Assembly: GCA_910587625.1 (NCBI GenBank)
Contig: CAJUMW010000002.1
Span: 86,002 to 150,001, forward strand
Direction of reading: 5' to 3'
Origin: an uncultured Christensenellaceae bacterium
GTDB taxonomy: Bacteria > Bacillota > Clostridia > Christensenellales > Borkfalkiaceae
Length of the DNA stretch: 64,000 nt
Part shown: in pieces, positions 42,667 through 61,899 of the stretch
Layout: each line of letters opens with the position of its first letter
Numbering within the stretch: position 1 is the first letter of the stretch
The notes under the pieces: model-generated
The model's input: the letters and a program-made list of their open reading frames with translations, nothing else
Told to the model about the DNA's origin: nothing
Databases searched by the model: none
Translations under genes and position numbers: made by a program

Positions 42667-43545
42667 ATGAAAAGCGGATTTATAGGTGTAATAGGCAGGG
42701 CTAACGCAGGCAAAAGCACGCTGGTAAACGTACTTGTCGGGGAAAAGGTTGCCATAGTTTCACCTAAGCCACAGACGACGCGCCACTCGATAATGGGCGT
42801 TTTAAATAAAGATGAGTATCAGCTTGTATTCGTCGACACTCCAGGTATCTATAAAAGCGCAAACTATCTTACCGATATGATGATGAAAGCGACTGACGAC
42901 ACCGCAAAGGACGTGGATTTTATTTTGTACGTTCACGACGGACACAACGGTATTTCGGAAAACGATTTGCAGCTTATGAAACGCTATTCGTCGGGGCATA
43001 TACCCATGGCAATCGCCTATACGAAGATAGATATTATGCCCAAAGAGGCAATTGCCGAAGACGCTAAAAAGCTGTATGAAGCCTCAATCGATTGCGACGT
43101 TTTTCCCGTTTCGGCACGAAAATATCAAAATATAAAAAAGCTTGAAGCTTATCTCGCGGAAAAAATGCCCGAAGGGCACAGAGTAATTTCCGAGGACATT
43201 GTTTCCGACAAAAGCGAAAAGTTTATGATTGCCGAAATAATGCGCGAAAAAATATTGCTTAAATTCGACGAGGAAATACCGCACGGCATAGCTATAGTTG
43301 TAAACGCATTCGAGCGCAAGGACAACGGCACATACGATATAAACCTCGATATTATCTGCGAAAAAGCCAATCATAAAGCAATTCTTATCGGCAAGCAGGG
43401 CAGAGCCATTAAGGAAGTTTCCGGCTTTGCGCGCGAGGGAATGGAAAAGTTTTTGGGCGCGAAGGTATTTTTGACTACATACGTCCGCGTTGAAGAGGAT
43501 TGGCGCAACAGACCGGGGCTTATAAAGGACGTATTTATAAGTTAA
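42667..43545 (+). CDS. era: GTPase Era
   Basis: G1 motif GRANAGKSTL, G3 motif DTPG, G4 motif TKID, C-terminal KH domain. 292 aa. Confidence 0.93.
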   Translation: MKSGFIGVIGRANAGKSTLVNVLVGEKVAIVSPKPQTTRHSIMGVLNKDEYQLVFVDTPGIYKSANYLTDMMMKATDDTAKDVDFILYVHDGHNGISENDLQLMKRYSSGHIPMAIAYTKIDIMPKEAIAEDAKKLYEASIDCDVFPVSARKYQNIKKLEAYLAEKMPEGHRVISEDIVSDKSEKFMIAEIMREKILLKFDEEIPHGIAIVVNAFERKDNGTYDINLDIICEKANHKAILIGKQGRAIKEVSGFAREGMEKFLGAKVFLTTYVRVEEDWRNRPGLIKDVFIS

Positions 43546-43593
43546 AGGTATAATTTTCTTAAACGTACGCACCTTATTTGTAAGAGGTGTAAA

Positions 43594-43695
43594 ATGAAAA
43601 AGGACAAAGACGCAGCCGAGCTTGCCTGGAAAATGTTTGAAAAAACGGGCAACGTGAGCTATTATATGCTGTATAAAAATCTTACCGAAAGATAA
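43594..43695 (+). CDS. YqzL-like small protein (unlisted 33-codon ORF between era and recO)
   Basis: The ATG at 43594 is preceded by TAAGAGGTG. It encodes MKKDKDAAELAWKMFEKTGNVSYYMLYKNLTER. The W..F..TG....Y pattern and the era-recO position match the Bacillus YqzL family. Confidence 0.6.
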   Translation: MKKDKDAAELAWKMFEKTGNVSYYMLYKNLTER

Positions 43696-43706
43696 ATCAA
43701 ACGTTT

Positions 43707-44429
43707 ATGGATATTAAAGTAAACGCGCTTGTTTTGCGAGCGACGGACTACAATGAAAACGATAAAATTCTGACGCTTTTGACAGCCGAAAACGGAAAAA
43801 TTTCCGCAGGTATAAAGGGCGTAAAAAAGCCTAACGCCAAGCTAAGGTTCGCGGCGCAGCCATTTTGCTTTGCCGAGTACGTTCTTGCAAAGCGCGGAGA
43901 AAAATATACGGTAATAAACTGTTCAGAGTGCGAGAGCTTTTACGATTTAAGGACGGATATCGACAAATTTTATGCGGCAAGCGCGGTTGTCGAGGCGGCT
44001 TCGGCGCTTACTTTCGAGGGCGGAGAATGCGCCGAAATTTTTTACGACTGTATAAAGACGCTTACAAATATGTGTTTAAGCGACGAGAGAGCGCTGCTTT
44101 TGCAATTTCTTATAGGCGCGCTTGAAAAGTCGGGCTATGCTATTTCTCTCGGTGACTGTCGGGTCTGCGGCAAGTCCTTGTGCCGTGAGGAAAAAGTAAG
44201 GTTTGAAATGGATTCGGGCACGTTTACATGCTTTGATTGCGGCAAGGGGGCGGGAGTAAGCCGAGTTACCTACAACGTTTTGAGAAAGCTTAAAAACAAG
44301 AGTTTCGAGCGCGAGTTTATAACGCCAGACGGGGAAATGCGTGCTTTGAAGTTAATAAAAGAGTACTTTTATTATAAGACCGAAAACCCCGTAAAAAGTC
44401 TTTTGGAATACATAAAAATAAAACAATAA
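43707..44429 (+). CDS. recO: DNA repair protein RecO
   Basis: 240 aa. N-terminal OB fold (ALVLRATDYNENDKILTLLT), zinc motif C..C...C..C, and synteny after era. Confidence 0.88.
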   Translation: MDIKVNALVLRATDYNENDKILTLLTAENGKISAGIKGVKKPNAKLRFAAQPFCFAEYVLAKRGEKYTVINCSECESFYDLRTDIDKFYAASAVVEAASALTFEGGECAEIFYDCIKTLTNMCLSDERALLLQFLIGALEKSGYAISLGDCRVCGKSLCREEKVRFEMDSGTFTCFDCGKGAGVSRVTYNVLRKLKNKSFEREFITPDGEMRALKLIKEYFYYKTENPVKSLLEYIKIKQ

Positions 44430-44536: not shown

Positions 44537-44565
44537 TTGCTATTTACACTATTATATGTTATAAT
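44537..44565 (+). promoter_or_regulatory. Sigma-A-type promoter candidate for the Hsp70/GTPase operon
   Basis: TTGCTA (44537-44542), 17 nt, TGtTATAAT extended -10 (44557-44565). Confidence 0.5.
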
Positions 44566-44619
44566 CAAAAAGAATTTGTGTACAAACAGGTTGTACAAAA
44601 AAATGATAAGGAGAACAGT

Positions 44620-45636
44620 GTGGCGGAAGAAATTAAGGTTATAGGCGTTACCGTCGAAAACGTAAATTACGACGAGTTTAAGGCAACGCTCGACAGATAT
44701 TACGACAAATTTGCCAGACTTATAAAGACCTATAAGGCAAAGGACGACACTATAGCAAAGCTCAGCGACGAGGTTACGAAATACAGGGGCGGATTTGCGC
44801 TTTCTATTGTAAAACCGCTTTGCGTTTCGCTTATATCGCTTAGGGAGGATTGCCGCAAGACGCTTGCAAATATCGAAAAATATTGCAAGGACGTCGAAAG
44901 CGTAGTCAGGTATTCGGACTATCTTTTATCCGACGTGGACGAGTTTATGTCAACTTACGGTCTTATTTACGGAGAGGACGGGTTTATTTTGAACGGAAAA
45001 AAGCTTAGCGACTGCGTGTCGAGAAAAGCCGCGTCCGTTTGCGACGAAGAGCAAAATTGCGAAAGTATCGAAAGCAATAGCGAAAACGTCGACGAAGGAG
45101 AGCAGAGCGAAGCGTGCGGCAAGGAGAGTTATTCGTTCAATACGCTTCTTTCCGAAATAGATTACGGACGGGAAAGGATGGAACAGCTTTTAACGGATTG
45201 TGCAAAAGCCGACGAAAATCTCGACCGTTACGTCAAGCTTGCGGCGTCTATCGAGGAGAACTATACCGACGCTATGCTGTTGCCGCTTTACAGGGAAATA
45301 GCTAATTTTTACGAAAAGCTGAAAGACAACGTCGAAGATGTCAAACAGAGGATAAACGAGGGCAATCTCGTACAGAGTTATTCCTCCTCGGTTAGCCTTG
45401 TAATAGACGAAACCTGGAAGCTGCTTATAATGGCAGGCGTTACAGTGGAGCACGACATATCCGACAGTTACGATATGCGCACCAACAAGATAGTCAAAAT
45501 TGTAAATTGCGACGATGAAAAACTTGATAGAACGGTTGCCGTAAGGCATACCGACTGTTACCTTTTCGACGGAAAAATTTTGTATCCCTCGAAAGTAGAC
45601 GTATATAAATACGTCCCCAAAAAAGTTGAAGAATAA
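44620..45636 (+). CDS. GrpE-like nucleotide-exchange-factor homologue (divergent, extended coiled-coil region)
   Basis: The C-terminal end aligns by eye with the GrpE beta-domain (LLIMAGVTVEHDISDSYDMRTNKIVKIV..RTVAVRHTDCYLFDGKILYPSKVDVYK vs GrpE GVE.I...G..FDP..H.A.......V..V...GY.L.GR.LR.A.V.V.K). The GTG at 44620 has AAGGAGA upstream. An alternative GTG lies at 44578. Confidence 0.65.
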   Translation: MAEEIKVIGVTVENVNYDEFKATLDRYYDKFARLIKTYKAKDDTIAKLSDEVTKYRGGFALSIVKPLCVSLISLREDCRKTLANIEKYCKDVESVVRYSDYLLSDVDEFMSTYGLIYGEDGFILNGKKLSDCVSRKAASVCDEEQNCESIESNSENVDEGEQSEACGKESYSFNTLLSEIDYGRERMEQLLTDCAKADENLDRYVKLAASIEENYTDAMLLPLYREIANFYEKLKDNVEDVKQRINEGNLVQSYSSSVSLVIDETWKLLIMAGVTVEHDISDSYDMRTNKIVKIVNCDDEKLDRTVAVRHTDCYLFDGKILYPSKVDVYKYVPKKVEE

Positions 45637-45669
45637 AAAATATTAAATAAAAAAGAGGAGAAAATCACA

Positions 45670-47328
45670 ATGGGTAAAAAAGTAGGTATAGACTTAGGTA
45701 CGACGTATTCAGTCGTAAGCTATGTTGACGAAACGGGCACAATCGTCAATATCGAGAGCGAAGAGGGAGAAAAGACCACCCCTTCGGTAGTATATTTCGA
45801 CCCCGACGGGCAGACCGCAGTTGTCGGAACGAGAGCGAGAGAGGCAGGTGCTTTGAACCCCGAGTTCCTTGTAGAGCGCGTAAAACAGTTTATGGACGAC
45901 CCCGATTACCAGCTTGAAATGCACGGCACTACATACTCGGCAAGCGCGGTTTCGTCTATTATTCTTAAAAAACTTATAACCGACGCCGAAAATGCGCTCG
46001 GCGGAGAGGAGATTGACGGCGCGGTTATTACCTGCCCCGCATACTTCGGTGACGTTGCCAAGGACGCAACGAGAAAAGCCGGAGAAAACGTAATTCTTTC
46101 CAACGGCAAAAAACTCAACGTTATGCGTATAATCGACGAGCCTACCGCAGCTGCGATAGCTTACGGTAACTCGCGCAGGGAGGACATGCACAAGACAGTT
46201 CTTATTTACGACCTCGGCGGCGGTACTTTCGACTGTACCGTAATGAAGCTCGACTTCGAGGGCACTAAGAAGGAATACAGAGTAATTACCACCAACGGCA
46301 ACCACAAGCTCGGCGGTAAAAACTGGGACGATACTCTTGCCGAATACGTTATGAGCGAGTTCTGCAACGCTACGGGCTGCGATATCGAGCTTATGCGTCA
46401 GGACTTCGAGGTCAAGGCTTGGTTTTCCGAAAACGTTGAAAAGGCTAAAAAACAGCTCACAAAAATGTCCAAAACAACGCTTACGCCCAGCTTTGACGGA
46501 CAAAAATACAGGGTTGAAATCGAGCGCACTCTTTTCGACGAAATTACCGACGGTCTTTTCAACGAAACTATTACGCTTATAAATCAGATGATGGATCAGG
46601 CAAACTTAAACTTTGCAACAGATATCGACGAAATTATACTTATCGGCGGTTCCACGCGTATGCCTCAGGTTGAAGAAAAGCTTACCGCCATTTACAATAA
46701 GCCCATTATGCAGTACGACCCCGACAAGGCTGTTTCAAACGGCGCGGCGTTGGTTGCAAGCGGTATGGACGCAGGCAATTCATCTTACGACCATGCCGAC
46801 AGTTCGGTGCCCTCAACCCCCGGAAAACCTTCTAACCTCGAACCTACCGAGTTTACGGATAAAGATGGTAATGAAGGATGTATTTTCGAGGTCTGCACCA
46901 AGTCGTATTGTCTGAGATATTACAGCGGCGGACAGGAAACTTATGTCAACCTTATAAAGAAGGACACCCCCAAGCCTGCAACGGGAACAACTGCTTTCCT
47001 TTTGCCCGGGCTTGTGATAGGCGGCGGTGACGGAAGCGGAATGACAAGCGAAATAGGCTTGCTTATTATGGAAAACGATTATAACGGCGACGAAGTAAGC
47101 CGCGACCAGTGCGTTGAAATTTACGAGGAAACTCCCCTTAAATTCGATACGCCCATTCCTTCGGATACAAAGGTTTCGGTCGAACTTTACGTCGACATTT
47201 CGGGTACGCTTACCCTTATTCTCACCGAAACGGACACGGGCAGAACGCATAAGCTCTATCCCGAGCGTATCGGCGGAGGAAATATAGGCAACGGTATGGA
47301 CGCAGCTGCAAAAATTACGCTGGGTTAA
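45670..47328 (+). CDS. Hsp70-family ATPase paralogue 1 (NBD plus SBD-beta-like region, no helical lid)
   Basis: GIDLGTTYS (phosphate-1), IYDLGGGTFDCTV (phosphate-2), IILIGGSTRMPQV (adenosine). 552 aa. The C-terminal beta-rich segment ends VDISGTLTLILTETDTGR. Confidence 0.88.
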   Translation: MGKKVGIDLGTTYSVVSYVDETGTIVNIESEEGEKTTPSVVYFDPDGQTAVVGTRAREAGALNPEFLVERVKQFMDDPDYQLEMHGTTYSASAVSSIILKKLITDAENALGGEEIDGAVITCPAYFGDVAKDATRKAGENVILSNGKKLNVMRIIDEPTAAAIAYGNSRREDMHKTVLIYDLGGGTFDCTVMKLDFEGTKKEYRVITTNGNHKLGGKNWDDTLAEYVMSEFCNATGCDIELMRQDFEVKAWFSENVEKAKKQLTKMSKTTLTPSFDGQKYRVEIERTLFDEITDGLFNETITLINQMMDQANLNFATDIDEIILIGGSTRMPQVEEKLTAIYNKPIMQYDPDKAVSNGAALVASGMDAGNSSYDHADSSVPSTPGKPSNLEPTEFTDKDGNEGCIFEVCTKSYCLRYYSGGQETYVNLIKKDTPKPATGTTAFLLPGLVIGGGDGSGMTSEIGLLIMENDYNGDEVSRDQCVEIYEETPLKFDTPIPSDTKVSVELYVDISGTLTLILTETDTGRTHKLYPERIGGGNIGNGMDAAAKITLG

Positions 47329-47353
47329 TAATTTAAGGTATAAAAGTTAAAAT

Positions 47354-47384
47354 TCCGCCGACGCCCGTTTACGACGTCGGCGGA
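47354..47384 (+). other. Intercistronic GC-rich hairpin between the two Hsp70 genes
   Basis: TCCGCCGACG-cccgtttacga-CGTCGGCGGA, a 10-bp stem with no T-run after it. Confidence 0.5.
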
Positions 47385-47421
47385 TAAGCCTATTTTAAAG
47401 TTAAATATAGCGAGAGTAAAT

Positions 47422-49500
47422 ATGAAAGAAATAAACGTCGGCATAGATTTAGGAACTACATATTCCGCAGTGGCGGTGTTCGATAGCGCAAGCGGCAGCG
47501 TAAAAATACTTAAAAACCACTTGGAGGAAGAAACTACGCCCTCGGTCGTGTGCATAGAAAACGGCAACGTGCTCATCGGCGTCGAGGCAAAGGACGAGCA
47601 AGCCGCAGGCAATGTCGGTGTTGCCGCGTTCTATAAAAATATGATGGGCAACGACGATTTAAAACCCTATCTCGACGGACGGGAATACACTGCGGAGCAG
47701 CTTTCGGGAATTTTTTTAAGCAAGCTTAAAGAGTCGGTCGAGGGCGCGAACAACGTTAAAATAGGCGGCGCGGTAATAACCGTTCCCGCATACTTCAACG
47801 AGGCGCAGCGTCAGGCAACGATACGCGCGGGAGAGGCGGCCGGGCTTAAAGTGCTTAAAATTATCAACGAGCCGACGGCGGCAATTATCGCATACGGACT
47901 TACGGGCATCGGCAAACGCAACGTAATGGTCTATGATTTGGGCGGAGGCACGTTCGACGTGACTATAGCAAAAATCGACGGGGCAAACGTTCAGGTTATA
48001 GCGACCAACGGCAACCACCAGCTCGGCGGCAAGGATTGGGACAACGCACTTGTCGAAATGGTAACGTCGCAGTTCGAAAACGATTACGAAATAAGGCTTG
48101 CGGAATATCCCGAGGCATATAACGGACTTTTAGTCCAGTGCGAAAGGGCAAAAAAACAGCTTACTGCAATTCCATCGACTACAATTTCAATAACCTGTTC
48201 GGGTTATAAGGGCAGATATACCGTTACACGCGAGGAGTTTGACGCGAAAACTGCACCCTATCTCAACGAGACGCTTACGCTGTCCGAAAATTGCTTTTCG
48301 GAAATCGGCGGCGGCTTCGGCTGGCACTCGATAGACGAAGTGGTGCTTGTCGGCGGTTCCACGCGTATGCCTCAGGTATCCGAGCTGATAACAAAAGTTT
48401 TCGGCAAACCGCCCAAGATTATAGGCAACAAGGTGGATACCATTGTTGCGACGGGCGCGGCTATGCAGGCAAGTTTATGCACTTCGGGCACGATAACTTT
48501 AAACTTGCGGAGCTTCGGCGTCAAGACATCGGCAAACGGCGGCAGCGCGCCAGCAACTTTGACTTTGAGTAACGACAATATCAAGGACGTAACCTCGCAC
48601 AGCCTCGGAATGCTGGCGTTATCAAAGGACGGGGGCGATATTGTAAACAGTATAATTATAAAGAAAAACAGCCTTACTGGCGTTCCGTATGGCAGGCAAT
48701 ATAACTTCAAGGGGGAAAAACTTGAAGTCTATGTTTTGCAGGGAGAGCTTACTTCACCCTACGAATGTACTTTGCTCTACAAATACATAGTTACGGGAAT
48801 GGATAAAAACGCCAAAAACGAGTTTACCATAAACTTTCAATACAACCAGAACGGCGTAGTTGAAGTTACGGGCAATCTTAAAAACGGCGCGGCGTTAGCC
48901 GTGCAAAAGACAATTGTCGACGAGAGTATAGAGGAAATTATAGCAAGATTAAAGCGCGAGAGGGAAGAGGCTCAAAGCCGTAGGCGTTCACTCGACGTCA
49001 CGTTTGCTATCGATACTTCGGGCAGTATGGCAGGCTCGGGCATAAGGGAAGCCAAAAAATCAATTACAAAATTTATCGAAAAGCTCGATTTGAAGTACGC
49101 GCGCGTGTCGGTAATAAGCTTCGACAGCAATTACAGGTGGATTTGCAGAAACGATAAGTCGGCAGGTTCAATCAACTCGGCGGTTGAAAGACTTTCGGCG
49201 GACGGCGGCACCAGCGCAGACCCGTTTGAACTCTATCTTTCCGACGTAAATTTAAGCGTTGACGAGCAGAGGGTGATAATAGCTTTGACTGACGGGGAAT
49301 GGTTCTATCCCGACGAGGCAATAAGAAACGCGGACAATTTGAAATCGCGAGGAGTAATTATATATGCCGTCGGCGTGGACGGAGCGAATTACTCGTTCCT
49401 TGAAAAAATCGCTTCCCCCGGCGGAGCTAAAAAAATAGATTTGTCGCAGTTGACAAAGACGTTTTCGGACATTGCGTCGTCAATTGCTACCGAACAGTAA
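47422..49500 (+). CDS. Hsp70-family ATPase paralogue 2 fused to a C-terminal von Willebrand factor A (vWA) domain
   Basis: GIDLGTTYSAVAV, VYDLGGGTFDVTI, VVLVGGSTRMPQV, and an SBD-beta-like DVTSHSLGM... A short helix follows, then a vWA domain with MIDAS residues DTSGS..GGT..TDG (about 48991-49497). Confidence 0.88.
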   Translation: MKEINVGIDLGTTYSAVAVFDSASGSVKILKNHLEEETTPSVVCIENGNVLIGVEAKDEQAAGNVGVAAFYKNMMGNDDLKPYLDGREYTAEQLSGIFLSKLKESVEGANNVKIGGAVITVPAYFNEAQRQATIRAGEAAGLKVLKIINEPTAAIIAYGLTGIGKRNVMVYDLGGGTFDVTIAKIDGANVQVIATNGNHQLGGKDWDNALVEMVTSQFENDYEIRLAEYPEAYNGLLVQCERAKKQLTAIPSTTISITCSGYKGRYTVTREEFDAKTAPYLNETLTLSENCFSEIGGGFGWHSIDEVVLVGGSTRMPQVSELITKVFGKPPKIIGNKVDTIVATGAAMQASLCTSGTITLNLRSFGVKTSANGGSAPATLTLSNDNIKDVTSHSLGMLALSKDGGDIVNSIIIKKNSLTGVPYGRQYNFKGEKLEVYVLQGELTSPYECTLLYKYIVTGMDKNAKNEFTINFQYNQNGVVEVTGNLKNGAALAVQKTIVDESIEEIIARLKREREEAQSRRRSLDVTFAIDTSGSMAGSGIREAKKSITKFIEKLDLKYARVSVISFDSNYRWICRNDKSAGSINSAVERLSADGGTSADPFELYLSDVNLSVDEQRVIIALTDGEWFYPDEAIRNADNLKSRGVIIYAVGVDGANYSFLEKIASPGGAKKIDLSQLTKTFSDIASSIATEQ

Positions 49501-49538
49501 TTTTATATTAAATACAGCAGGTTAAAAAGGAGTATTTT

Positions 49539-52328
49539 ATGGCAGCGGTTAAAACGAGAACTGCAGAAGAATTAAAACAGTCTAAATATAATTATTTTAT
49601 CGTCCTCGATTTGAGCGTCAACGAAAAGAATCCTACTACAATACTGCAGGCACTTAAAAAGAAGTTTCCGGCCAATCAGGGTACGCCCAAAGACCCTTAC
49701 TTAGCTCGGCTTTTGGAGTTAAAGGGGGATATGGAGCAGGTACTTGTAAACGACGCAAGATATGACGACGCTTCCGGACAGTACGTTGCAAAGAGCGGAA
49801 TAAGAAAGGAAGAGGGAGATAGGGCTAAAAACTTTAAGCTTTCCGAAGTTATGACTATTGTTAGGGTCAAGTGCCAATCAAACGGCATAATGTACAAGAC
49901 CGAGCTTAGAAAGCTGTGCGTAGACGCAAACAAGAAAGCCGTGTTCTTCGAATTTGCCGAGCTTGAAAAAAAGTTTAAAGACGAAAAGCTCGATTCGGTC
50001 GTAAAATACATAGACAACGAAACCAACATCATAAATTTTATAGCGTTCGACGATATTTCCGATTTGTTGCAGGTTGAAGGCTTTGCCGACTTATACGCAT
50101 ATCTAGGACTGACAAACTCGGCAAGCTCGCAGCAGATTTTGTCGGAAGAAAAGAGAATTACAAACGAAAAGCTTGCAAACACGGGCGACAAGGAAAAAAA
50201 GAACCGCATAAACGCCTTTTCTGGCAACATTCAGACGATATTCAAGACGCCGGCATCGAGAAAGCAGTACGACGACTATCTGAAATCGCGTGAAAGCGTT
50301 TGGTCGCAGTTCAAAATTAGAAAGGCGTACAGCAAGGAAATTTCGCTGAACGAGTATATAGATTTCGTCGAAAAGCTTATGAAGGCTTTGAATATCCGCT
50401 TGGACGACGCGCAAACTATGCTCGGCGCAGGTTTAAAAAACTACGGCTTTATAGTCACGGGCGGCACAGCTAACGGAGCCGAAAAGAGCAAAATGGGTAT
50501 TACCGACCTGTCCTCTTGCCGTTTCTGCGGTTCGCTGTATAAAAAGGGCGCAAAAAGTTGCCCCAACTGCGGAAAATTGCTTGTTTCGGCGTGCTGGAAC
50601 TGCGGCGCTTCAATGGATTTGACAGTCACAAGCGTCTGCGGCAAGTGCGGAGCGAGCGAGGCGTTAAAAAAGAGCTTTGCGGCGGAAGTTATAAATTTGA
50701 ACAAGCTTTTTCAGTCGGGACAGTACAAGGAGTATGCGTTAAAGAGCGAGGCGTTCAAGCGCACTTATTCAAGCTTTAACCAGCCGCGTTCGCAGGTGGA
50801 AAGGGAGATGGCGGCAATAACCAAGACCTCCGACGACATTGTTTCGAAACAGCGCGAAAAGGAAACTACTTCAAAAAACTATCTTGCTAAAATAAACGCG
50901 GCAATAACTTCGAGAAAGTATTTCGAGGCGCAAAATCTTTTAAGGCAGTTAAAGCAGGTCGTTCCCGACGCAAACGTTAAGGCGGAAGAGAGCAGAATAA
51001 ACGCCGTCATTGCCGAGGTTCAGCAAATTTACAGGCAGATATGCGCGCTCGGCTCTGACGAGGCAAGAATTATACCCGAGTATATGCGTCTTTACGAAAA
51101 GTGCGTTGACTATTCCGAGGCGCAGTCGGTTATAAAAAAATTCCCGCCCAAACCTCCCGTCGAAGTTACCGTATCCGTGAGCGAAAGGGGCAATATAATA
51201 AAGTGGAACGTTCGTCCCGACGACACTATCACATACTCGGTAGTCAGAAAAATAGGCGCGGCGCCGAGAAGCGCAAGCGACGGAGATTTGCTTGTTTCGG
51301 GTCTGCGCGCGTTTACGTTTACCGACCTTAAAGCCGAAAACGTAGTACCTTATTTTTACGGCGTTTTTGCAACAAGGCTGGGTAGCGATTCTGCACTAAC
51401 CTGCACCAAAGCTTCTTGCCAAAGGTACGCAAACGTCACTATAAAGAGCAGTAAAGTGCTTGTTAACGGGCTCAAAGTAGAGTTTGCCTCTCTTTCGGGC
51501 GTAAGTAAAGTCATAGTTGTGCGCTCAAACGACGCTACGCCGCCCAAGAGCATTTCAAGCGGTACCAAAATTCCCGTAGACGAAAACGGGTTCACCGATT
51601 CTACTTTGCCCGGTTCGGGATTATACGGCTATTTCATTGTCTGTGAGTACATTGTAAACGGCAAACCCGTGTACTCGTCGGGAATATCCGAAACTTTCGA
51701 GTTCTACGAAAGACCGTCGTTTGTGGAAAACGTCAGGTTCAAAAAGGAAGAGGGCAACCTTTTTTGCGTAACTTTCAACGAGCTGGCTGTGGGTAAATTT
51801 GATATTTACGCTTCAAAGACGGCTGTCGTCGGCTTGAAATCCAACGAGTATTACAATATTTCAAAGCTAAACGGGCTTACGGATATCGAGTGTAAAAACG
51901 TAAAGCCCACTTCGGTAAACTTCGAGCTGCCGGGCAGGGGAGATTGGTTCTTCTACCCCGTGTGCGTGCAAAAGAGCGAGTTTACGGTGGGAGACGAGTA
52001 TATCTACCGCGATACCTCCCCCAAGTCGGCGGTGGTGCAGTATGAAGTTAAAGTAAATAAAAACAGCACTGTTTCCATCGATTTTGCCTGCGACCACCTT
52101 GTGGAGCTTGACGCTGTGAGGGTTGTGGGGACTGTCGGCAGACGGCCGAGAAACGTAAACGACGGAGAATGCGTGTCCGTGCTTGACGGAATAAAATTCA
52201 AAAAACCGCTGTTCTCCAAGGAGTACAAGGCAAGCATAAAAGTGTCCGTAGAGGGACGTAATCGCGGCAACGTTTACGCAGTATTTGCCGAAAACGACCA
52301 AGGAATAATATTTAAGAGGAAAGGATAA
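49539..52328 (+). CDS. 929-aa multidomain protein: J-like domain lacking HPD, double zinc ribbon, helical region, C-terminal beta-sandwich-like repeats
   Basis: The J-like stretch DLYAYLGLTNSASSQQI..KLANTGDKEKK..TPASRKQYDDYL (about 50088-50282) has ANT where HPD is expected. Four CxxC pairs (CRFC..CPNC..CWNC..CGKC) lie at 50517-50648. The beta-rich C-terminal half is Fn3/Ig-like by pattern only. Confidence 0.7.
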   Translation: MAAVKTRTAEELKQSKYNYFIVLDLSVNEKNPTTILQALKKKFPANQGTPKDPYLARLLELKGDMEQVLVNDARYDDASGQYVAKSGIRKEEGDRAKNFKLSEVMTIVRVKCQSNGIMYKTELRKLCVDANKKAVFFEFAELEKKFKDEKLDSVVKYIDNETNIINFIAFDDISDLLQVEGFADLYAYLGLTNSASSQQILSEEKRITNEKLANTGDKEKKNRINAFSGNIQTIFKTPASRKQYDDYLKSRESVWSQFKIRKAYSKEISLNEYIDFVEKLMKALNIRLDDAQTMLGAGLKNYGFIVTGGTANGAEKSKMGITDLSSCRFCGSLYKKGAKSCPNCGKLLVSACWNCGASMDLTVTSVCGKCGASEALKKSFAAEVINLNKLFQSGQYKEYALKSEAFKRTYSSFNQPRSQVEREMAAITKTSDDIVSKQREKETTSKNYLAKINAAITSRKYFEAQNLLRQLKQVVPDANVKAEESRINAVIAEVQQIYRQICALGSDEARIIPEYMRLYEKCVDYSEAQSVIKKFPPKPPVEVTVSVSERGNIIKWNVRPDDTITYSVVRKIGAAPRSASDGDLLVSGLRAFTFTDLKAENVVPYFYGVFATRLGSDSALTCTKASCQRYANVTIKSSKVLVNGLKVEFASLSGVSKVIVVRSNDATPPKSISSGTKIPVDENGFTDSTLPGSGLYGYFIVCEYIVNGKPVYSSGISETFEFYERPSFVENVRFKKEEGNLFCVTFNELAVGKFDIYASKTAVVGLKSNEYYNISKLNGLTDIECKNVKPTSVNFELPGRGDWFFYPVCVQKSEFTVGDEYIYRDTSPKSAVVQYEVKVNKNSTVSIDFACDHLVELDAVRVVGTVGRRPRNVNDGECVSVLDGIKFKKPLFSKEYKASIKVSVEGRNRGNVYAVFAENDQGIIFKRKG

Positions 52329-52329
52329 A

Positions 52330-53448
52330 ATGTCGGGAAAAATTATTTGCCCCTATTGCTATACCGAACAAAAACTTAAACTTATGAAAAAAATTTGCAT
52401 AAGCGACGGTTGCGAGGAAAACACAAAAAACACAAAGTTTTCCGCAAAGGAGAGCAACTGCCCCAAATGCGGCAGCAACCTGCGCTATGCCTGCACTAAT
52501 CCCAAGTGCGGACACTCTATTGAAAAGGACGAGTTGGAGTGCAAAGACCCCCTGCCCATAGCTATTATCGGGGCAAGGTATTCGGGCAAATCCAACTATA
52601 TAGCCGTTGCCGTGCACGAGTTGCAGGTTAAGGGCAACAGATTCGGAATAGGTATCAGAGCCAACGCCGCGACGGCTTCCGTGTATTCACAGGAATACGA
52701 AGCGCCGGTTTTCAAGCGTCAGGTTCCAATTACCACCACGCGCGCCGCAACAAAGAAAAATAAGCGCGAGCCGCTTATATTTATGCTTACCACGGGACTG
52801 AATAAGGGTAAGCGCGGAACATTTCCGCTGTCATTCTATGATACCGCAGGGGAAAATATGGAAAAGAGCGACCTCGATACCGAGGAGTACGTCGGATATA
52901 TCTCCTATGCAAAGGGGCTTATCATACTTATGGACCCGTGGCAGATACCTTACGTCAAAGACAGGCTCGGCGGCATAATTCCGCCCGAGGCAAAGAACGC
53001 CATAGGTTTAAGTCCCTACGAAATTTTGGAGCGAGCTATTCGCGTCATACGCAGTCAGACCAAAATGAAGGTCAATGACAAAATCAAAATACCCATTGCA
53101 ATTGCGTTCAGTAAAATAGACTCGCTTGAAAGCGGCGGACTTTTGGAGGACGGCAGTTGCCTTACGCGCCCGTCGTCGCACATAGACGAGGGCAAGTATT
53201 CAAAGCTCGAACACGACGACACCAACAGCGACATAATGAGTATGCTTCAATACTTCGACGAGGAAGAGGCGGAAAGGTTTTTGAACCTTACTCGCAACAA
53301 TTTCGAGACATATTCGTTTTTCGGGTTTTCGTCGTTCGGCTGCGGACTTACGGGCGGCAAGCTCAGTCAAAAGGTCAAACCGAGAAGGGTGCTCGACCCG
53401 TTCCTTTGGCTGCTTAGCATAAACAAACGTATTCAGACTACAAAATAA
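52330..53448 (+). CDS. Zinc-ribbon plus small-GTPase-like P-loop protein (soluble paralogue)
   Basis: It starts 1 nt after the upstream stop. CPYC..C..C..CPKCG..CTNPKCGH. Walker A/G1 GARYSGKS (52570-52593), G3-like FYDTAGE, G4-like FSKID. C-terminal LDPFLWLL motif. Confidence 0.75.
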   Translation: MSGKIICPYCYTEQKLKLMKKICISDGCEENTKNTKFSAKESNCPKCGSNLRYACTNPKCGHSIEKDELECKDPLPIAIIGARYSGKSNYIAVAVHELQVKGNRFGIGIRANAATASVYSQEYEAPVFKRQVPITTTRAATKKNKREPLIFMLTTGLNKGKRGTFPLSFYDTAGENMEKSDLDTEEYVGYISYAKGLIILMDPWQIPYVKDRLGGIIPPEAKNAIGLSPYEILERAIRVIRSQTKMKVNDKIKIPIAIAFSKIDSLESGGLLEDGSCLTRPSSHIDEGKYSKLEHDDTNSDIMSMLQYFDEEEAERFLNLTRNNFETYSFFGFSSFGCGLTGGKLSQKVKPRRVLDPFLWLLSINKRIQTTK

Positions 53449-53462
53449 GGGGAATTGAAAAA

Positions 53463-56183
53463 ATGAGATATAAACAGTTGATTTATACGTCTTACAAAAA
53501 ATACAACTCGGACGTAACGGGTGAATCAAGCGGTTACGACGTGTTTGCGATGACGCCCGGTATAAGCGAAGAAGAGCGCGACGAGCTTATTGCAATGTTC
53601 ACAAACTATGCCGTTCCCAACGACCCGAGGTTGAACGATTTGGAAAATATCGAAAAGAACGTCGAGCTGTACGCGCCCAAACAGCGCGCATACCTCAAGC
53701 TGTCCACGGGCAGGTACTGCTGGTGTCAGGTTTCGCTTATGCCCTACGATTTCAGCGGACGTTACAACAGCATTTACTTTCACGCCGTATTATCGGATGA
53801 AGAGCCCGATTTTGCTCCCGTCGACTTTTTCGAAAACTTTACCTTTAAAACAAAGCTCACCGACGACGAGTTTCACGCGCGCGTTACGCCGCCCGAGCTC
53901 AGGGAGGAAAACATCGACGGCAAGCTTATGCAGAGGGCAAGGCAGACGGTTAAGTTCGAGCGCGCGGTTTTAACTAAAATTCTCAACTCTGTTTTATATT
54001 GCGTAAGAGAAAATAAGCCTCTGTTTTTAAATTGCAAGACGGAAGAGGCTTACGACGCAATAAAATCCGTGCTCGCATTTTTGCCCGTTTCGCTTGCAAA
54101 AGCCGCTTATTTTTCCACATACTCCTCCGACGAACAGGAGGACGGGCGCGCGTTCAGAATTTGCCATATGGGCGATGAATTCGGCTATTCAAACAGGCTT
54201 TCAAACACCTATGTAGCCGTTGCCGATTTAATTGAAAATAAATTTTCCGAACACATTCCCGACGACGCGTTTATTGCAAGGCTTGTCGAGTATGCGTACA
54301 CGAACGCGGCTAATTTGGACAGGTTAAAAGCGTTTTACGAAAATTATACGAAAGGCTCGCTCGGCTTTTCGTCGGAGGCGCTTGTCAACGCATACGACTT
54401 TATGTACACCGAAGCATACGAGCAGTTTGATTTGCACACTTTCAAATCGGTAATATCGGACGCGTACATAACTACCGTGCCCCAAAATGCGAGGGCGTCG
54501 AGAATAAAAGAATATCTTGCCGCAAATATGCCGGATGTGCGGGAGCGCGGCGTACTGCTCAATGAAATTTATAAGCTTACGGCAGATAAGCGAATTCTTA
54601 CCGACTACACAAGCGAGCTTTTGAAAATGGTTGTAGACGTCGAGCTTAAAACCGACGAAGCTGCGGAAATTTTAAAGAGCGTTTTCGGCTGCGATTTAAG
54701 AATGGTTGTTTTAGCCGAACTTGACACATACACAAATCTTTTGTCGTCAAACATCTCTGAAACCGCGGTGTTCGAGCTGGTTGTCGGATTGCTTTTGAGT
54801 GCGGAAAAGGTGGACAGAGCAAAGGCTGACGAGCTGTATTCGTTGCTCTTCAACGGAATTTCGGCTAAGGGTGACTTGAATTTGTTGACGGGCATGCTTT
54901 TGCCGAGCTTAAAAAATAGCGCATATTTCAACGTGTGCGTTAAAAAGATTTTTTCAAGCTACTGTAAAAATGCCGAGCACGCGGCATATTGGCTTGATTT
55001 CTGCATTAATTGTGCCGACGAAACTATACGCGACGTATTTTTAAACCTTACGCTCGAGTACGTCGGCAGCGACGAGCTTTTGCGTGTAGTCGCTGTCAAC
55101 CCTCAGATATGCAATCACATTCTGGCTCTGCTTAAAAAAATCGACCAAAAGAACCTTTGTAAGGACGCAATTTTCAATATTATTTGCAAGCTGCTTCGCG
55201 CGGCGCTTGCCGTATCTCCCGTTGCGGATACTGCGGTAAATATTATTAAATTTTACGACGTTTTGAAGTATGAACGCATAGGGGAGTTGTACGACATAAC
55301 TTACGAAGTTTTACAGGGCAACATTTCAAACGTGTTTATCAAACTTGCCGAGCAGTACGGAGACGATTATGTAAGCGCAATTGCGCGCGGTAAGTGGAGT
55401 AATTTTGCCGAAAATATTCTTATTTCGAGCATTCGTACCGACGAGGACGTAATTTCGAGATATATAAAGAAGTATTATGTAAAGGGCAACTTCCGCGAGT
55501 GTTACGACGGAATTATGTCGGCAATCGAGTTTGGGGACGACACCCGGCAGTGGTTGTTCTACGGCAGGCTTTTAAACGAAGTAAAGGGACTGCACGATAA
55601 CGCTTTAACTAAGGTATATACCTTGCTAAACGCCAAACTTTTCGATATTTCTCACAGTGACAGAAAGGCTGTTGCAAAGGTAATTTCGGACATTTGCGCT
55701 ATATCCGACATACGCGTTTCAAAGGAAATAGAACTTGTTTCGAGACTTATTAACTTTGACGGAAAATATAAGACGGCTGTTGAACTTGAGGACTTTATTT
55801 TAGCAGTTTGCTCAAACGATGATAAGGTCGGTTCGGGAGTGTTCGCCTACTACTATGACGTACTTTTGGGCGTTTCGCTTGTAATTGTCAAAAAGAAAAA
55901 GCCGTCAAAGCTTTTGTCGCTCATCTACGCAAGCGGCTTGGAAGACGAGTATATTGCAAAGCTTTGGGACGTCTATTTTAAAAAGGACAAAAAAGCGCAG
56001 ATTATGTATATGCTCGAGCTTATGCGCGAGGATATAAGCTGTGCGGACAGTGATTACAAAAACAGTCTTTTAAAATATTTTTACGGACATTCCGACGAGA
56101 AGTTTATAGCTAAGTTCAATAAATTGCTGTCAAAAAGCAAGAACGATAAATTTGCGGCTTCGGCGGAAAAATATAAAAATTGA
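53463..56183 (+). CDS. 906-aa predominantly helical protein, function unknown (possible GTPase-associated partner)
   Basis: Good SD (AAGGGGA). The N-terminus is MRYKQLIYTSY....GYDVFAMTPGIS.. followed by ..YDFSGRYNSIYFHAVL. The rest is a helix-rich repeat-like sequence. No catalytic motif seen. Confidence 0.7.
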   Translation: MRYKQLIYTSYKKYNSDVTGESSGYDVFAMTPGISEEERDELIAMFTNYAVPNDPRLNDLENIEKNVELYAPKQRAYLKLSTGRYCWCQVSLMPYDFSGRYNSIYFHAVLSDEEPDFAPVDFFENFTFKTKLTDDEFHARVTPPELREENIDGKLMQRARQTVKFERAVLTKILNSVLYCVRENKPLFLNCKTEEAYDAIKSVLAFLPVSLAKAAYFSTYSSDEQEDGRAFRICHMGDEFGYSNRLSNTYVAVADLIENKFSEHIPDDAFIARLVEYAYTNAANLDRLKAFYENYTKGSLGFSSEALVNAYDFMYTEAYEQFDLHTFKSVISDAYITTVPQNARASRIKEYLAANMPDVRERGVLLNEIYKLTADKRILTDYTSELLKMVVDVELKTDEAAEILKSVFGCDLRMVVLAELDTYTNLLSSNISETAVFELVVGLLLSAEKVDRAKADELYSLLFNGISAKGDLNLLTGMLLPSLKNSAYFNVCVKKIFSSYCKNAEHAAYWLDFCINCADETIRDVFLNLTLEYVGSDELLRVVAVNPQICNHILALLKKIDQKNLCKDAIFNIICKLLRAALAVSPVADTAVNIIKFYDVLKYERIGELYDITYEVLQGNISNVFIKLAEQYGDDYVSAIARGKWSNFAENILISSIRTDEDVISRYIKKYYVKGNFRECYDGIMSAIEFGDDTRQWLFYGRLLNEVKGLHDNALTKVYTLLNAKLFDISHSDRKAVAKVISDICAISDIRVSKEIELVSRLINFDGKYKTAVELEDFILAVCSNDDKVGSGVFAYYYDVLLGVSLVIVKKKKPSKLLSLIYASGLEDEYIAKLWDVYFKKDKKAQIMYMLELMREDISCADSDYKNSLLKYFYGHSDEKFIAKFNKLLSKSKNDKFAASAEKYKN

Positions 56184-56340
56184 TCCTGCTTCTATAATTG
56201 CTGTTCCGATTTTGGTGATAAGTGCGTGTATTGCACTATTATGCAACCGTAAATTTTTTGCCGCAGGCTTTATTTTCGGGCTTATTATATATTGCCTGTG
56301 TCGCTTGAAAAAATTCGCGGTATTATCTCTTACGGCGTGA
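56152..56340 (+). CDS. Doubtful small two-TM ORF in the only long intergenic gap of the operon
   Basis: 62 codons with a TTG start, no SD and no in-frame ATG. Two hydrophobic stretches (IIAVPILVISACIALL, AAGFIFGLIIYCLC). It overlaps the upstream gene by 32 nt. Confidence 0.2.
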   Translation: MRLRRKNIKIDPASIIAVPILVISACIALLCNRKFFAAGFIFGLIIYCLCRLKKFAVLSLTA

Positions 56341-56367
56341 GAAAATATTGGAAAAATTGAGGTAACT

Positions 56368-57315
56368 ATGGGTTATTTAATTGGTTTTGGTATCATACTC
56401 GGTATAATAGCCGGTATTTGTTACGGAATATACACGTTATGCGTAATTATCTGGAATATGCAGGTATGCTATCACGGCAGTATGGACGCTATGTTCAGTG
56501 TCACGCTGATTATTGTCGTTTTGTTGGCTGCTTTGGTTGTAGTTTGTTTAATTGTTGCGGCATTGTTTGAATTGGACGGATTGAAAACCGTTGTATTGCG
56601 CATTATGTTGCCCGCAGCGATAGGCTTTTTGGCTCTTTCGGGCATAGTTTATATTTACGGCTATTGCGAACCTGTATTTTTGGGTGTTGACGCATTAAGT
56701 GACCCTGCGTATAACAATTATTTTTTGAATACAGAACGGGATATAATGGTCAATGATTTGAGTCCGTTTACTACAATTCAGGCTTGGGTCATATTGATAA
56801 GCGGAACTTTGCTTTTCATTGCCGCAGCATTTTCGATTATAGCGGCGCTGATATCGTCCGTCCGTTACGGAGATATATATCTCGGCAGTGCATTCAGTGT
56901 GTTGTTTAAATGCTTATACCGCATATTTTTACCTGTTTTAATTCTTGTTGCGGTGCTCGTAGGCTGGTACTATTTAACCACTATCGTTCTTTGGGACTAT
57001 GATTTATTCGATTTGATTATTCACGGCATAGCAACCTCGGGCGCGCTGCTCGGAGCGGTAGTCGGGTTTGCTTTTCTTGTAAACAGACAGCCGCTTGCCG
57101 CCGCCTTTTCACTCGGGCTTGCCGCGGCTGTGGCATTTGTAAGCTACACCGTGTTCGGCGCAAAGATACTGCTTGATTTGATGAGCGAGTATTATCTGTT
57201 TATAATTTTAGGTTTCATAGGGTTATACTTATTGCTCGGCGTTGTTTACTGTCTTACAAGAATTAAAGTAATAAGAAATATCATAAGACGTGCAAAATAT
57301 ATGTATTGGTTATAA
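56368..57315 (+). CDS. Polytopic membrane protein (about 8 TM), function unknown
   Basis: 315 aa, almost entirely hydrophobic helices. SD TGAGGT upstream. Confidence 0.75.
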   Translation: MGYLIGFGIILGIIAGICYGIYTLCVIIWNMQVCYHGSMDAMFSVTLIIVVLLAALVVVCLIVAALFELDGLKTVVLRIMLPAAIGFLALSGIVYIYGYCEPVFLGVDALSDPAYNNYFLNTERDIMVNDLSPFTTIQAWVILISGTLLFIAAAFSIIAALISSVRYGDIYLGSAFSVLFKCLYRIFLPVLILVAVLVGWYYLTTIVLWDYDLFDLIIHGIATSGALLGAVVGFAFLVNRQPLAAAFSLGLAAAVAFVSYTVFGAKILLDLMSEYYLFIILGFIGLYLLLGVVYCLTRIKVIRNIIRRAKYMYWL

Positions 57316-57330
57316 TTATTCGGAGAAAAT

Positions 57331-58731
57331 ATGAAAAAACAAAGATTGGAAGAACCTGCAAGGACTAAACTGTTTTGGATTCCCATTTACAACATTCTTT
57401 TTTATACCGTCAAAGAAATTCTTTTGGACGTATGGGATTTGGCGTCGACTGTCGGCAATAAATTTTTCCGCCTGCTCTGGGTGGTAGTGTTTCCCTTTCT
57501 TCTGGTAATTTATCCGGCTACCTGTCTTGTACTGCTGCTGGTAATTATAGTTTTACTTTTTGTTACGCTGGTTAACTATATTTTCGGCGGCGTCAGCTAT
57601 GTGGTGGACAGCTTGTATTTAAAAATTCACGGAATAGGGCTTGTGTGTCCCGCGTGCAACAACAAGTATCAGTTGCCGACATACATATGTCCAAGATGTA
57701 ACGCCCAACATAAGAACCTGCGCCCCGGCAGGTACGGCATTGCAAAGCGCACCTGTAAGTGCGGCGCAAAGCTGCCCACAACGTTCTTTAACGGCAGGCA
57801 GCATCTTGACGCCATATGCCCTAACCCGGCTTGCCGCTATGCTTTCAAATCGAAGATACTGCCGGCACGCCCCATATGTATTCCCATTATCGGCGGCGTA
57901 TCCTCGGGTAAAACAAGCCTTATAAACGCAGGTATAGACGGGCTGAATAAATATTGCCAAATCCCCGACAATAAAATGGAGTTCGAGTATTGCTCGAACG
58001 AGGACGAGCAGAGGCACAAGAGAAACCTTGAAATTTTAAAGACGAGGAACACCGACAAGACTCATAAACAGCAGTTCGACTCGTACAAGTTCTATTTCTC
58101 TCCTCAGGGCGCAAAGGTAAAGAACAGGGTTTACGTCTATGACGTTGCCGGAGAGGTCTACGACGCCAAAAAGCAGAATATTGTTGAAAAGACGCAGGTT
58201 TTCGACTTTACAAACAGCTTGCTGTTCGTATTGGACCCTCTGTCTATCGACGATTTTTACGACGACTGCGTTCAGGCAAAGGTGCCCAATCTCGAAAGAT
58301 ACAAGCGTTCGGACAGAAGTATGAACGACGTTGTTACAAATATGATAAACAGCCTCGGCGTGTTTGCAAGTCTTACGCCCGAAAGGTGTAAAAAGGTGTT
58401 TGTAGCGATAGTTATTACAAAGGGCGACTTGCCGCTAATTAAAGACCAAATCGGTGACGAGTACGTCGCAGAGCTTGCAAGGCAGAACAGAACGACATGG
58501 AATAGGGCTAAAAATATTGCCTGCGAGCAGTTCCTTGACAAGTATCAGGCTATGAACTTTCTCAACATAATAAGGAATAAGTTTGAAAATTATCAGTTTT
58601 TCACAACCAGCTCGTGGAGCGGAGAACAGAACAAGTACGTTGCGGAAAATGCCGAGGACCCGTTCCTTTGGCTGATTGATATGGAAAGTCCCGAAATTGA
58701 CCTTAAAACAAAGTGGAACAGCAATAAATAG
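57331..58731 (+). CDS. Membrane-anchored zinc-ribbon plus small-GTPase-like P-loop protein (paralogue of 52330-53448)
   Basis: Two N-terminal TM helices. CPACN..CPRCN..CKCG..CPNPAC. G1 GGVSSGKT (57892-57915), G3-like VYDVAGE, G4-like ITKGD. C-terminal EDPFLWLI motif shared with the soluble paralogue. Confidence 0.75.
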   Translation: MKKQRLEEPARTKLFWIPIYNILFYTVKEILLDVWDLASTVGNKFFRLLWVVVFPFLLVIYPATCLVLLLVIIVLLFVTLVNYIFGGVSYVVDSLYLKIHGIGLVCPACNNKYQLPTYICPRCNAQHKNLRPGRYGIAKRTCKCGAKLPTTFFNGRQHLDAICPNPACRYAFKSKILPARPICIPIIGGVSSGKTSLINAGIDGLNKYCQIPDNKMEFEYCSNEDEQRHKRNLEILKTRNTDKTHKQQFDSYKFYFSPQGAKVKNRVYVYDVAGEVYDAKKQNIVEKTQVFDFTNSLLFVLDPLSIDDFYDDCVQAKVPNLERYKRSDRSMNDVVTNMINSLGVFASLTPERCKKVFVAIVITKGDLPLIKDQIGDEYVAELARQNRTTWNRAKNIACEQFLDKYQAMNFLNIIRNKFENYQFFTTSSWSGEQNKYVAENAEDPFLWLIDMESPEIDLKTKWNSNK

Positions 58732-58744
58732 GAGGTCGCTTAAA

Positions 58745-59335: not shown

Positions 59336-59345
59336 GGAGTAGAAT

Positions 59346-60377: not shown

Positions 60378-60387
60378 AGGTGTACAT

Positions 60388-61851: not shown

Positions 61852-61852
61852 T

Positions 61853-61889
61853 AAAACTGCCGCAAAGCTTTAAACTTTGCGGCAGTTTT
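61853..61889. terminator. Bidirectional intrinsic terminator closing the Hsp70/GTPase operon
   Basis: AAAACTGCCGCAAAG-ctttaaa-CTTTGCGGCAGTTTT followed by ATT. Confidence 0.8.
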
Positions 61890-61899
61890 ATTATATAAA

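Follow-up and report, generated by a model that had tools for sequence, protein, structure and literature searches.

The gene and its product

A 64,000-nucleotide stretch of contig CAJUMW010000002.1 (assembly GCA_910587625.1) from an uncultured Christensenellaceae bacterium, called the window throughout, carries on its plus strand a gene at positions 49539 to 52328 whose product of 929 amino acids (aa) combines two J-like domains, a double zinc ribbon, a helical region and four FN3 domains. With high confidence we assign this gene to a DO-GTPase system of the GAP1-N2 type and HSP70-GrpE theme, as its FNIII-repeat component, and we find that neither of its J-like domains has the HPD tripeptide. 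A first-pass annotation, made from the letters of this DNA alone, had reported a 929-aa open reading frame at 49539-52328 with a GTPase gene 1 nt downstream; the frame is indeed present on the plus strand with an ATG start, and the next gene begins at 52330. Three antisense open reading frames within the gene (49697-50230, 50103-50414 and 51867-52301) were dismissed as genes because the plus-strand frame is kept end to end in homologues. The gene and the parts of its product, several of them assigned with AlphaFold2 (AF2) models, are as follows.

49539 to 52328, plus strand: the whole gene, ATG start, encoding the full 929-aa protein
49590 to 49799, plus strand: N-terminal degenerate J-like domain, aa 18-87 (hhalign; no HPD)
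49800 to 50063, plus strand: long helix and small beta-alpha-alpha-beta module, aa 88-175 (AF2; no Pfam match, no known family)
50064 to 50288, plus strand: central J-like domain, aa 176-250 (profile against PDB, Foldseek and hhalign; HPD replaced by (L)ANT)
50289 to 50498, plus strand: second helix and beta-alpha-alpha-beta module, aa 251-320 (AF2)
50517 to 50648, plus strand: double zinc ribbon, CRFC-x10-CPNC-x7-CWNC-x11-CGKC, aa 327-370 (Pfam DZR, PF12773)
50658 to 51143, plus strand: all-helical region of seven helices, aa 374-535 (AF2 DSSP; sub-threshold Pfam matches alone, no confident family)
51150 to 52325, plus strand: four tandem FN3-type beta-sandwich domains (AF2 and Foldseek)

An exhaustive homologue search at E<=1e-3 returned 1,393 representative clusters. 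The 213 of these that reach E<=1e-30 are full-length homologues of the 929-aa protein, and most are 980-1,050 aa long. The exhaustive search was needed, as a word-indexed search returned 3-4 relatives even with a 43-sequence profile. The census of HPD below covers the top 152 representatives, and Pfam domain counts among relatives refer to 43 scanned family members. A search for related loci found two genomes: an uncultured Christensenella sp. metagenome-assembled genome (MAG) with a 98%-identical copy of the gene and, next, an Erysipelotrichaceae MAG at 32%. The full-length AF2 model has a mean predicted local distance difference test score (pLDDT) of 88.5. DZR is the only Pfam family above threshold in the protein, and no NCBIfam model matches it. 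Neither a transmembrane (TM) segment nor a signal peptide was found in the 929 residues, and we therefore place the FN3 array in the cytoplasm.

Two J-domain homologues

Residues 176-250 are a true J-domain homologue. A profile of three family sequences searched against the PDB matched J domains, with that of Tid1/DNAJA3 (E 2.8e-4) aligned end to end, and a 27-sequence profile of aa 1-322 gave 43 matches, 42 of which were J domains (best E 1.8e-7), all placed at aa 174-245. By hhalign the central domain matches a set of nine canonical J domains at 97.4% (E 1e-11). The AF2 model of aa 1-322 has a pLDDT of 92.7 and a predicted template modelling score (pTM) of 0.81, and its compact matches in the PDB are J domains only, including those of Tid1, T. 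thermophilus DnaJ, CbpA and DNAJB13 (root-mean-square deviation (rmsd) 2.5-3.0 Å over 63-68 columns, Foldseek probability 0.85-0.97); the central domain superposes on the Tid1 J domain with an rmsd of 2.5 Å over 66 columns and a TMt of 0.68. The structural signature of the domain is kept across the family at L185, Y186, L189, L227, G229, F235, R241, the invariant Y244, D245 and L248, and the loop between helices II and III is predicted by AF2 to span just 3 residues (T215-D217). The first-pass annotation had pointed to a J-like peptide encoded at 50088-50282, which corresponds to residues 184-248, and had proposed structure prediction and profile searches as its check; the homology held in the PDB profile search (E 1.8e-7), in AF2 with Foldseek and in hhalign.

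We give next to no credence to the idea that a small helical bundle merely looks like a J domain by chance. The single central-domain sequence reaches only 12 bits (E 0.23) against Pfam DnaJ (PF00226), where the gathering threshold is 27.8 bits, and the Foldseek E-values of the J-domain matches, at 2-6, are non-significant alone, both of which would fit chance. The profile search, in contrast, retrieves J domains almost exclusively and end to end (42/43), hhalign sets 97% for the domain against less than 1% for control segments, and the relative P0025 passes the Pfam DnaJ cut-off at 31.4 bits, with DnaJ matches in 10 of the 43 relatives. The PDB profile search and hhalign effectively refute a chance origin.

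The protein carries a second, more degenerate J-like domain at aa 18-87, in the region where a weaker similar stretch had been noticed earlier. These residues align by hhalign with the central J-like profile at 95% (E 3.5e-8, 68 columns) and with the canonical J domains at 91% (E 1e-6), the control segments (aa 86-176 and 253-320) staying below 4%, and N18 is near-invariant in the family. The modules that follow the two J-like domains, aa 88-175 and aa 251-320, have an identical order of secondary structure in the AF2 model; their reading as sequence repeats is unsupported (hhalign 3.5%). The N-terminal 320 residues would form a compact unit of two J-domain homologues, each with a small helical/beta module after it.

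Family-wide loss of HPD

Canonical J domains trigger ATP hydrolysis by Hsp70 through the HPD tripeptide. To our knowledge its aspartate is essential in every J domain studied, and structural work on DnaK and DnaJ has R167 of DnaK as the partner of this residue. HPD is present in neither J-like region of any of the family representatives (0/152), the tripeptide occurs in none of the operon proteins, and a six-frame translation of the window shows no J-like pattern with HPD. HMMER aligns HPD to LAN (212-214) and hhalign aligns it to ANT (213-215), so the register is good to +/-1; within it, positions 212-215 are variable, Lys-rich and poorly conserved across the family. The corresponding loop of the N-terminal J-like domain reads FPANQGTPKD in the window protein and its clade, and about 30 of the 152 representatives, distant ones, keep HP[T/S/K] there, typically in the context W-S-x-x-R-N-H-P-T-K-G. 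The first-pass annotation had read ANT in place of HPD and had proposed to look at the conservation of that position. The absence of HPD stands, and is a property of the family (0/152) and not a local accident, whereas the replacing tripeptide is fixed only to within one residue (LAN or ANT) and its positions vary. Because the essential aspartate is missing family-wide, canonical HPD-dependent stimulation of Hsp70 by these J-like domains is unlikely.

With canonical DnaJ/Hsp40 (PF00226) the protein shares the four-helix J fold, the Y-x-x-L-G and R-x-x-Y-D motifs and the linked Hsp70 and GrpE genes; it differs in lacking HPD, a G/F region and the client-binding domains found at the C-terminus of DnaJ, and in falling below the Pfam cut-off. 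Mitochondrial Pam16/Tim16 also has a J fold without HPD; its partner is the true J protein Pam18/Tim14, and Pam16 is thought to bind or regulate Hsp70 and not to stimulate it. The two J-type folds of the window protein, packed together, are reminiscent of the Pam16-Pam18 heterodimer. The lineage is unrelated, however, both folds lie in one chain here, and both copies are HPD-less with no obvious active partner.

Zinc ribbon, helical region and FN3 array

Pfam DZR matches the 929-aa protein with E 1.3e-6 (28.9 bits against a cut-off of 27.3) and is found in 42 of the 43 family members. The CxxC motifs start at C327, C341, C352 and C367, and all eight cysteines are conserved, seven of them invariant and C330 in at least 90%. 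Four CxxC motifs at 50517-50648 had been read correctly before, with spacers of x13, x8 and x12 that are in fact x10, x7 and x11. The motifs do not form a DnaJ CxxCxGxG zinc-finger domain, which we ruled out as they are of the DZR type (CxxCG) and no such Pfam match came up in the protein or among the 43 scanned relatives.

The long helical region that had been described past the zinc ribbon is present as seven helices at aa 374-535 of the AF2 model, and the roughly 400 aa of Fn3/Ig-like beta-rich sequence described at the C-terminus resolve into four tandem FN3 domains with approximate boundaries at aa 538-630, 631-725, 726-826 and 827-929. Searched with Foldseek against the PDB, the array matches four-domain fibronectin fragments over about 405 columns, 3t1w (FN7-B-8-9) with E 7.5e-9 and 1fnf with E 7.5e-8; 203 matches reach E<=1e-3. 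Pfam fn3 is matched in 11 of the 43 relatives. Family-wide mean identity is lowest in the third FN3 domain (19%) and among the highest in the first and second (30-32%). Thirteen near-identical strain variants of the gene differ at 25 sites with no clear hot spot, and hypervariable FN3 loops at strain level are thus unsupported.

The window protein and its 65% relative P0002 (929 and 924 aa) are about 100 aa shorter than most relatives (980-1050 aa). The gap relative to P0003 and most other relatives falls between the third and last FN3 domains (window 51714-52325), and from this position we consider that the clade of the window protein and P0002 has probably lost one beta-sandwich domain.

The operon

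The gene lies in a 17-kb co-directional cluster running from 44578 to 61851. Besides the gene itself, the cluster contains the following.

44578 to 45636, plus strand: GrpE-like gene, first of the operon (Pfam GrpE E 1.6e-4, below cut-off)
45670 to 47328, plus strand: atypical Hsp70, 552 aa (Pfam HSP70 E 2.8e-82 over 5-364; nucleotide-binding domain intact, C-terminal part divergent)
47422 to 49500, plus strand: Hsp70 fused to a C-terminal vWA, 692 aa, directly upstream of the gene (Pfam HSP70 E 1.4e-97, VWA E 5.6e-19)
52330 to 53448, plus strand: DO-GTPase2 with two N-terminal zinc ribbons (Pfam 27.3 bits; CxxC motifs in the N-terminal 75 aa)
53463 to 56183, plus strand: GAP1 (GTPase-associated protein 1) with N2 and M domains (Pfam GAP1-N2 E 1.9e-13, GAP1-M E 2.5e-3)
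56368 to 57315, plus strand: multi-pass membrane protein, 315 aa (nine hydrophobic 19-aa windows; no Pfam match, no known family)
57331 to 58731, plus strand: second DO-GTPase2, with N-terminal TM segments and zinc ribbons (Pfam E 1.1e-8; TM-like windows, CxxC motifs)
58676 to 59335, co-directional: zinc-ribbon/TPR-like protein
59346 to 60377, co-directional: SPFH/Band-7 (Band_7_1) protein with a C-terminal double zinc ribbon
60388 to 61068 and 61069 to 61851, co-directional: two more membrane proteins

The flanking Hsp70-vWA and GTPase genes named in the first-pass annotation are both present by Pfam. The best promoter-like site (44537-44565) and a hairpin with a 20-bp stem (61848-61894) bracket the operon. 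The 93-nt spacer that separates the Hsp70 genes contains a second hairpin (47354-47384; 12-bp stem with 9 G-C pairs, reported on the minus strand). The listed TTG start of the open reading frame at 58676-59335 overlaps the end of the second DO-GTPase2 by 56 nt; the in-frame Met codon 24 (nt 58745), which precedes the CPGC...CEFC zinc ribbon, is more likely to be the start of this zinc-ribbon/TPR-like protein. A Band_7_1 gene also stands beside a related system in the locus L014 (3735-5012, opposite strand), and the SPFH/Band_7_1 gene may be a recurrent accessory component.

Upstream of the operon are the housekeeping genes yqfD, phoH, a 7TM-HD gene, era and recO, and the operon starts about 150 nt past the era-recO pair (42667-44429). 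No tRNA was found in the 64-kb window, and no plasmid match was found. GC content is 0.41-0.49 throughout, the operon showing no strong departure from its flanks, and GC does not support a compositionally foreign island. PADLOC-DB v2 gave no match to the 929-aa protein and only marginal ones, at E of about 2e-3, to its neighbours.

Relation to the GTPase-centric conflict systems

Kaur, Burroughs, Iyer and Aravind (eLife 2020; PMC7159879) described in silico a set of 'GTPase-centric' conflict systems built on DO-GTPases and GAP1. In their account the GAP1-N2 type always includes an FNIII-repeat protein, which is "typically fused to the DnaJ domain", or to TPR, and whose FNIII repeats are called 'rapidly evolving'; HSP70 and GrpE are also present in about 14% of the GAP1-N2 neighbourhoods, from Actinobacteria and Firmicutes, and are joined in some by a second HSP70. 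Multimeric assemblies are proposed for these systems, and an anti-invader role is proposed alongside a patchy, mobile distribution and effector-like variable components. The first-pass annotation had not recognised that an operon of this kind, including a DnaJ-FNIII fusion protein, was already described there.

The window operon corresponds point for point to the HSP70-GrpE theme of PMC7159879, having DO-GTPase2 twice, GAP1-N2, an Hsp70 and a second Hsp70, GrpE and a J-FNIII protein; the host belongs to the Firmicutes, and the GTPases bear zinc ribbons and TM segments as in those systems. The match carries the caveat that the GrpE of the window is below the Pfam cut-off and that the J-like domains have no HPD. 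Because DO-GTPase2, GAP1-N2/M, two Hsp70s (one fused to vWA) and a weak GrpE occur together in one co-directional cluster, the gene is very probably the FNIII-repeat component of a GAP1-N2-type system.

Several features differ from the text of PMC7159879 as far as it was available: two J-like domains without HPD (0/152) stand here where 'the DnaJ domain' stands there, the J-like domains are separated from the FN3 array by a double zinc ribbon and a helical region, and the larger Hsp70 carries vWA. One supplementary file of the paper has no DnaJ, HSP70 or GrpE entries. Two points, the tandem arrangement of J-like domains and the loss of HPD throughout the family, appear to go beyond what that text describes.

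Conserved context and family variants

Gene neighbourhoods were examined for nine homologues bearing the J-like domains, with identities between 65% and about 20%. In eight of the nine the gene directly upstream is Hsp70-vWA or, where the contig breaks off, its vWA end. Where contigs allow, DO-GTPase2 and GAP1-N2, or weaker or uncalled equivalents, follow downstream, and GrpE and an Hsp70 lie further upstream; DO-GTPase2 and GAP1-N2 stand in the order of the window in L001, L002, L006, L007 and L009, and GrpE is called at the same position in L006, L007, L008 and L014. The first-pass annotation had named homologues occurring without neighbouring Hsp70 genes as evidence that would speak against its proposal. 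One such homologue was found, P0034, judged over 1.4 kb upstream and about 10 kb downstream, and the linkage holds in the other eight.

The family also varies in what follows the J-like domains. P0034 (L011:1407-5525) has both J-like domains and the double zinc ribbon, followed by poly-Lys, one TM helix and BspA-type LRR_5/Flg_new/LRR_8 repeats, and looks like a single-pass receptor with extracellular-type repeats. P0066 has TPR in place of FN3 and keeps its Hsp70-vWA neighbour. In P0141 (1406 aa) the J-like, zinc-ribbon and FN3 parts are joined in a single polypeptide to a DO-GTPase2 domain (aa 1125-1320). P0106 matched via FN3 repeats alone, and its context is unrelated.

We next consider the protein mainly as a client or polymer substrate, gripped by Hsp70-vWA through its MIDAS or its substrate-binding domain and remodelled or assembled, with the J-like folds as relics. 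The position of Hsp70-vWA directly upstream (8/9) would suit such a relation, as would its DTSGS, which fits the vWA MIDAS motif DxSxS, and the multimeric assemblies proposed in PMC7159879. Both J-like domains are found family-wide, however, and N18, Y186, Y244 and D245 are near-invariant, which argues for selection on the surface of the fold and not for a relic. The reuse of the two J-like domains and zinc ribbon with TPR or LRR C-termini is moreover the behaviour of an adaptor module, and we regard a client role as quite improbable.

Extra genes that vary between loci follow the second GTPase or GAP1: a transglutaminase-core protein in L001 (9978-10928), a transglutaminase-core protein and three C-type-lectin proteins in L009 (18886-23588), and a 1067-aa DUF87 ATPase in L006 (13969-17172). 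L009 also has three Hsp70 genes and a TraG/VirD4-like gene upstream.

These genes bear on the biological role of the operon. It might be a membrane-proximal stress machine, or a cytoskeleton-like one, with the 929-aa protein as its cytoplasmic scaffold and no function against invaders. The multi-pass membrane proteins and the SPFH/Band-7 zinc-ribbon protein of the operon, with Band_7_1 again in L014, point this way, as do the GC content like that of the flanks (0.41-0.49), the position adjoining era-recO, the low strain-level variation with no hypervariable patch and the lack of PADLOC matches. The patchy, mobile distribution and effector-like variable components set out in PMC7159879 weigh on the other side, together with the variable transglutaminase, C-type lectin, DUF87 ATPase and TraG-like genes at related loci. 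On balance we hold such a non-immune role to be unlikely, while giving it real weight.

The partner Hsp70s

Alignment with an E. coli DnaK sequence shows that both operon Hsp70s keep the ATPase catalytic residues (equivalents of K70, E171 and DLGGGTFD). The R167 position of DnaK is R in the 552-aa Hsp70 and K in Hsp70-vWA. The hydrophobic interdomain linker (VLLL in DnaK) is degenerate in both, with a long insertion before it, and both proteins score far below the NCBIfam DnaK cut-offs.

The J-like domains could be working co-chaperones of these atypical Hsp70s, with other residues doing the work of HPD; examples would be the Lys-rich II-III loop in the central domain and HP[T/S/K] in the N-terminal domain. 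On this reading the protein would amount to a specialised Hsp40, and its FN3 array would choose the clients. A conserved GrpE-like factor next to two Hsp70s that are catalytically intact by sequence leads one to expect a full ATPase cycle, R or K stands at the R167 equivalent, and HP[T/S/K] is kept in about 30 of 152 representatives. Set against this, the HPD aspartate, established as essential in the J domains studied, is absent in all 152, neither the H nor the D is left in the window protein, and the central II-III loop has a predicted length of only 3 residues, with poorly conserved positions. We judge an active co-chaperone to be an improbable reading, if one worth keeping in mind.

Discussion

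The account that we favour for the whole, and hold to be probable with considerable room for doubt, is that the gene encodes an FNIII component whose HPD-less J-like domains dock the operon Hsp70s on a cytoplasmic scaffold. The docking-adaptor mechanism of the J-like domains, taken on its own, is more tentative, and we put it a little short of an even chance. In this mechanism the J-like domains would be fixed docking sites tethering the Hsp70 and Hsp70-vWA of the operon to the scaffold, which would consist of the double zinc ribbon, the helical region and the four FN3 domains, and the GrpE-like factor of the operon would recycle the docked Hsp70s. We read the N-terminal 320 aa as an Hsp70-docking module because they hold two J-like folds, because the linkage to dedicated Hsp70 genes is close and conserved, and because the J-like and zinc-ribbon module is reused with FN3, TPR and LRR. 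The partner of the scaffold would be the DO-GTPase/GAP1 switch, which is translationally coupled to it, and both would act close to the membrane proteins that the operon encodes; that the scaffold works directly with this switch is suggested by the translational coupling to DO-GTPase2 and by the natural fusion in P0141. The docking of Hsp70 by the J-like domains, the lack of canonical ATPase stimulation, the coupling to the GTPase and any role in defence are what we infer. The first-pass annotation had proposed an adaptor of this kind, which is reasonable given the missing HPD. Of its more speculative sensor for a foreign or envelope ligand it can be said that the FN3 array would be cytoplasmic and that the strain variants display no hypervariable surface.

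Several observations weigh against this account. The conserved GrpE-like factor implies that the Hsp70s cycle nucleotide, in which case something must stimulate hydrolysis, and the J-like domains could do so by a route that does not involve HPD. The HP[T/S/K] kept in some 30 distant relatives means that a complete functional loss is not certain across the family. The flanks covered for P0034, 1.4 kb upstream and roughly 10 kb downstream, contain neither an Hsp70 nor a DO-GTPase gene, and the Foldseek E-values of the J-domain matches are, as noted, non-significant alone. No operon protein has a convincing PADLOC match, which leaves a defence role putative, and our literature search gave no interaction, ATPase or phenotype data on any member of the system, only the 2020 in-silico paper.

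A further reading, which we advance as a speculation unlikely in its full form, is that the HPD-less J-like tandem is a constitutive platform putting Hsp70 and Hsp70-vWA under the control of DO-GTPase/GAP1, with FN3, TPR and LRR as interchangeable arms for ligand recognition. The operon would then encode a chaperone-derived signalling or immune assembly, with P0034 as its TM receptor variant.

DO-GTPase/GAP1 systems are widespread, and no experimental work on them came up in the literature search. Relative to the 2020 prediction the advance is incremental, in that an existing prediction is refined and no new system is revealed. What it offers is a concrete construct, aa 1-320, and concrete sites, N18, Y186, Y244 and D245, for testing. 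With the 'DnaJ' part made of two HPD-less J-like domains, the biochemistry to be expected of the family would shift to the tethering or regulation of dedicated Hsp70s, away from classical co-chaperone stimulation.

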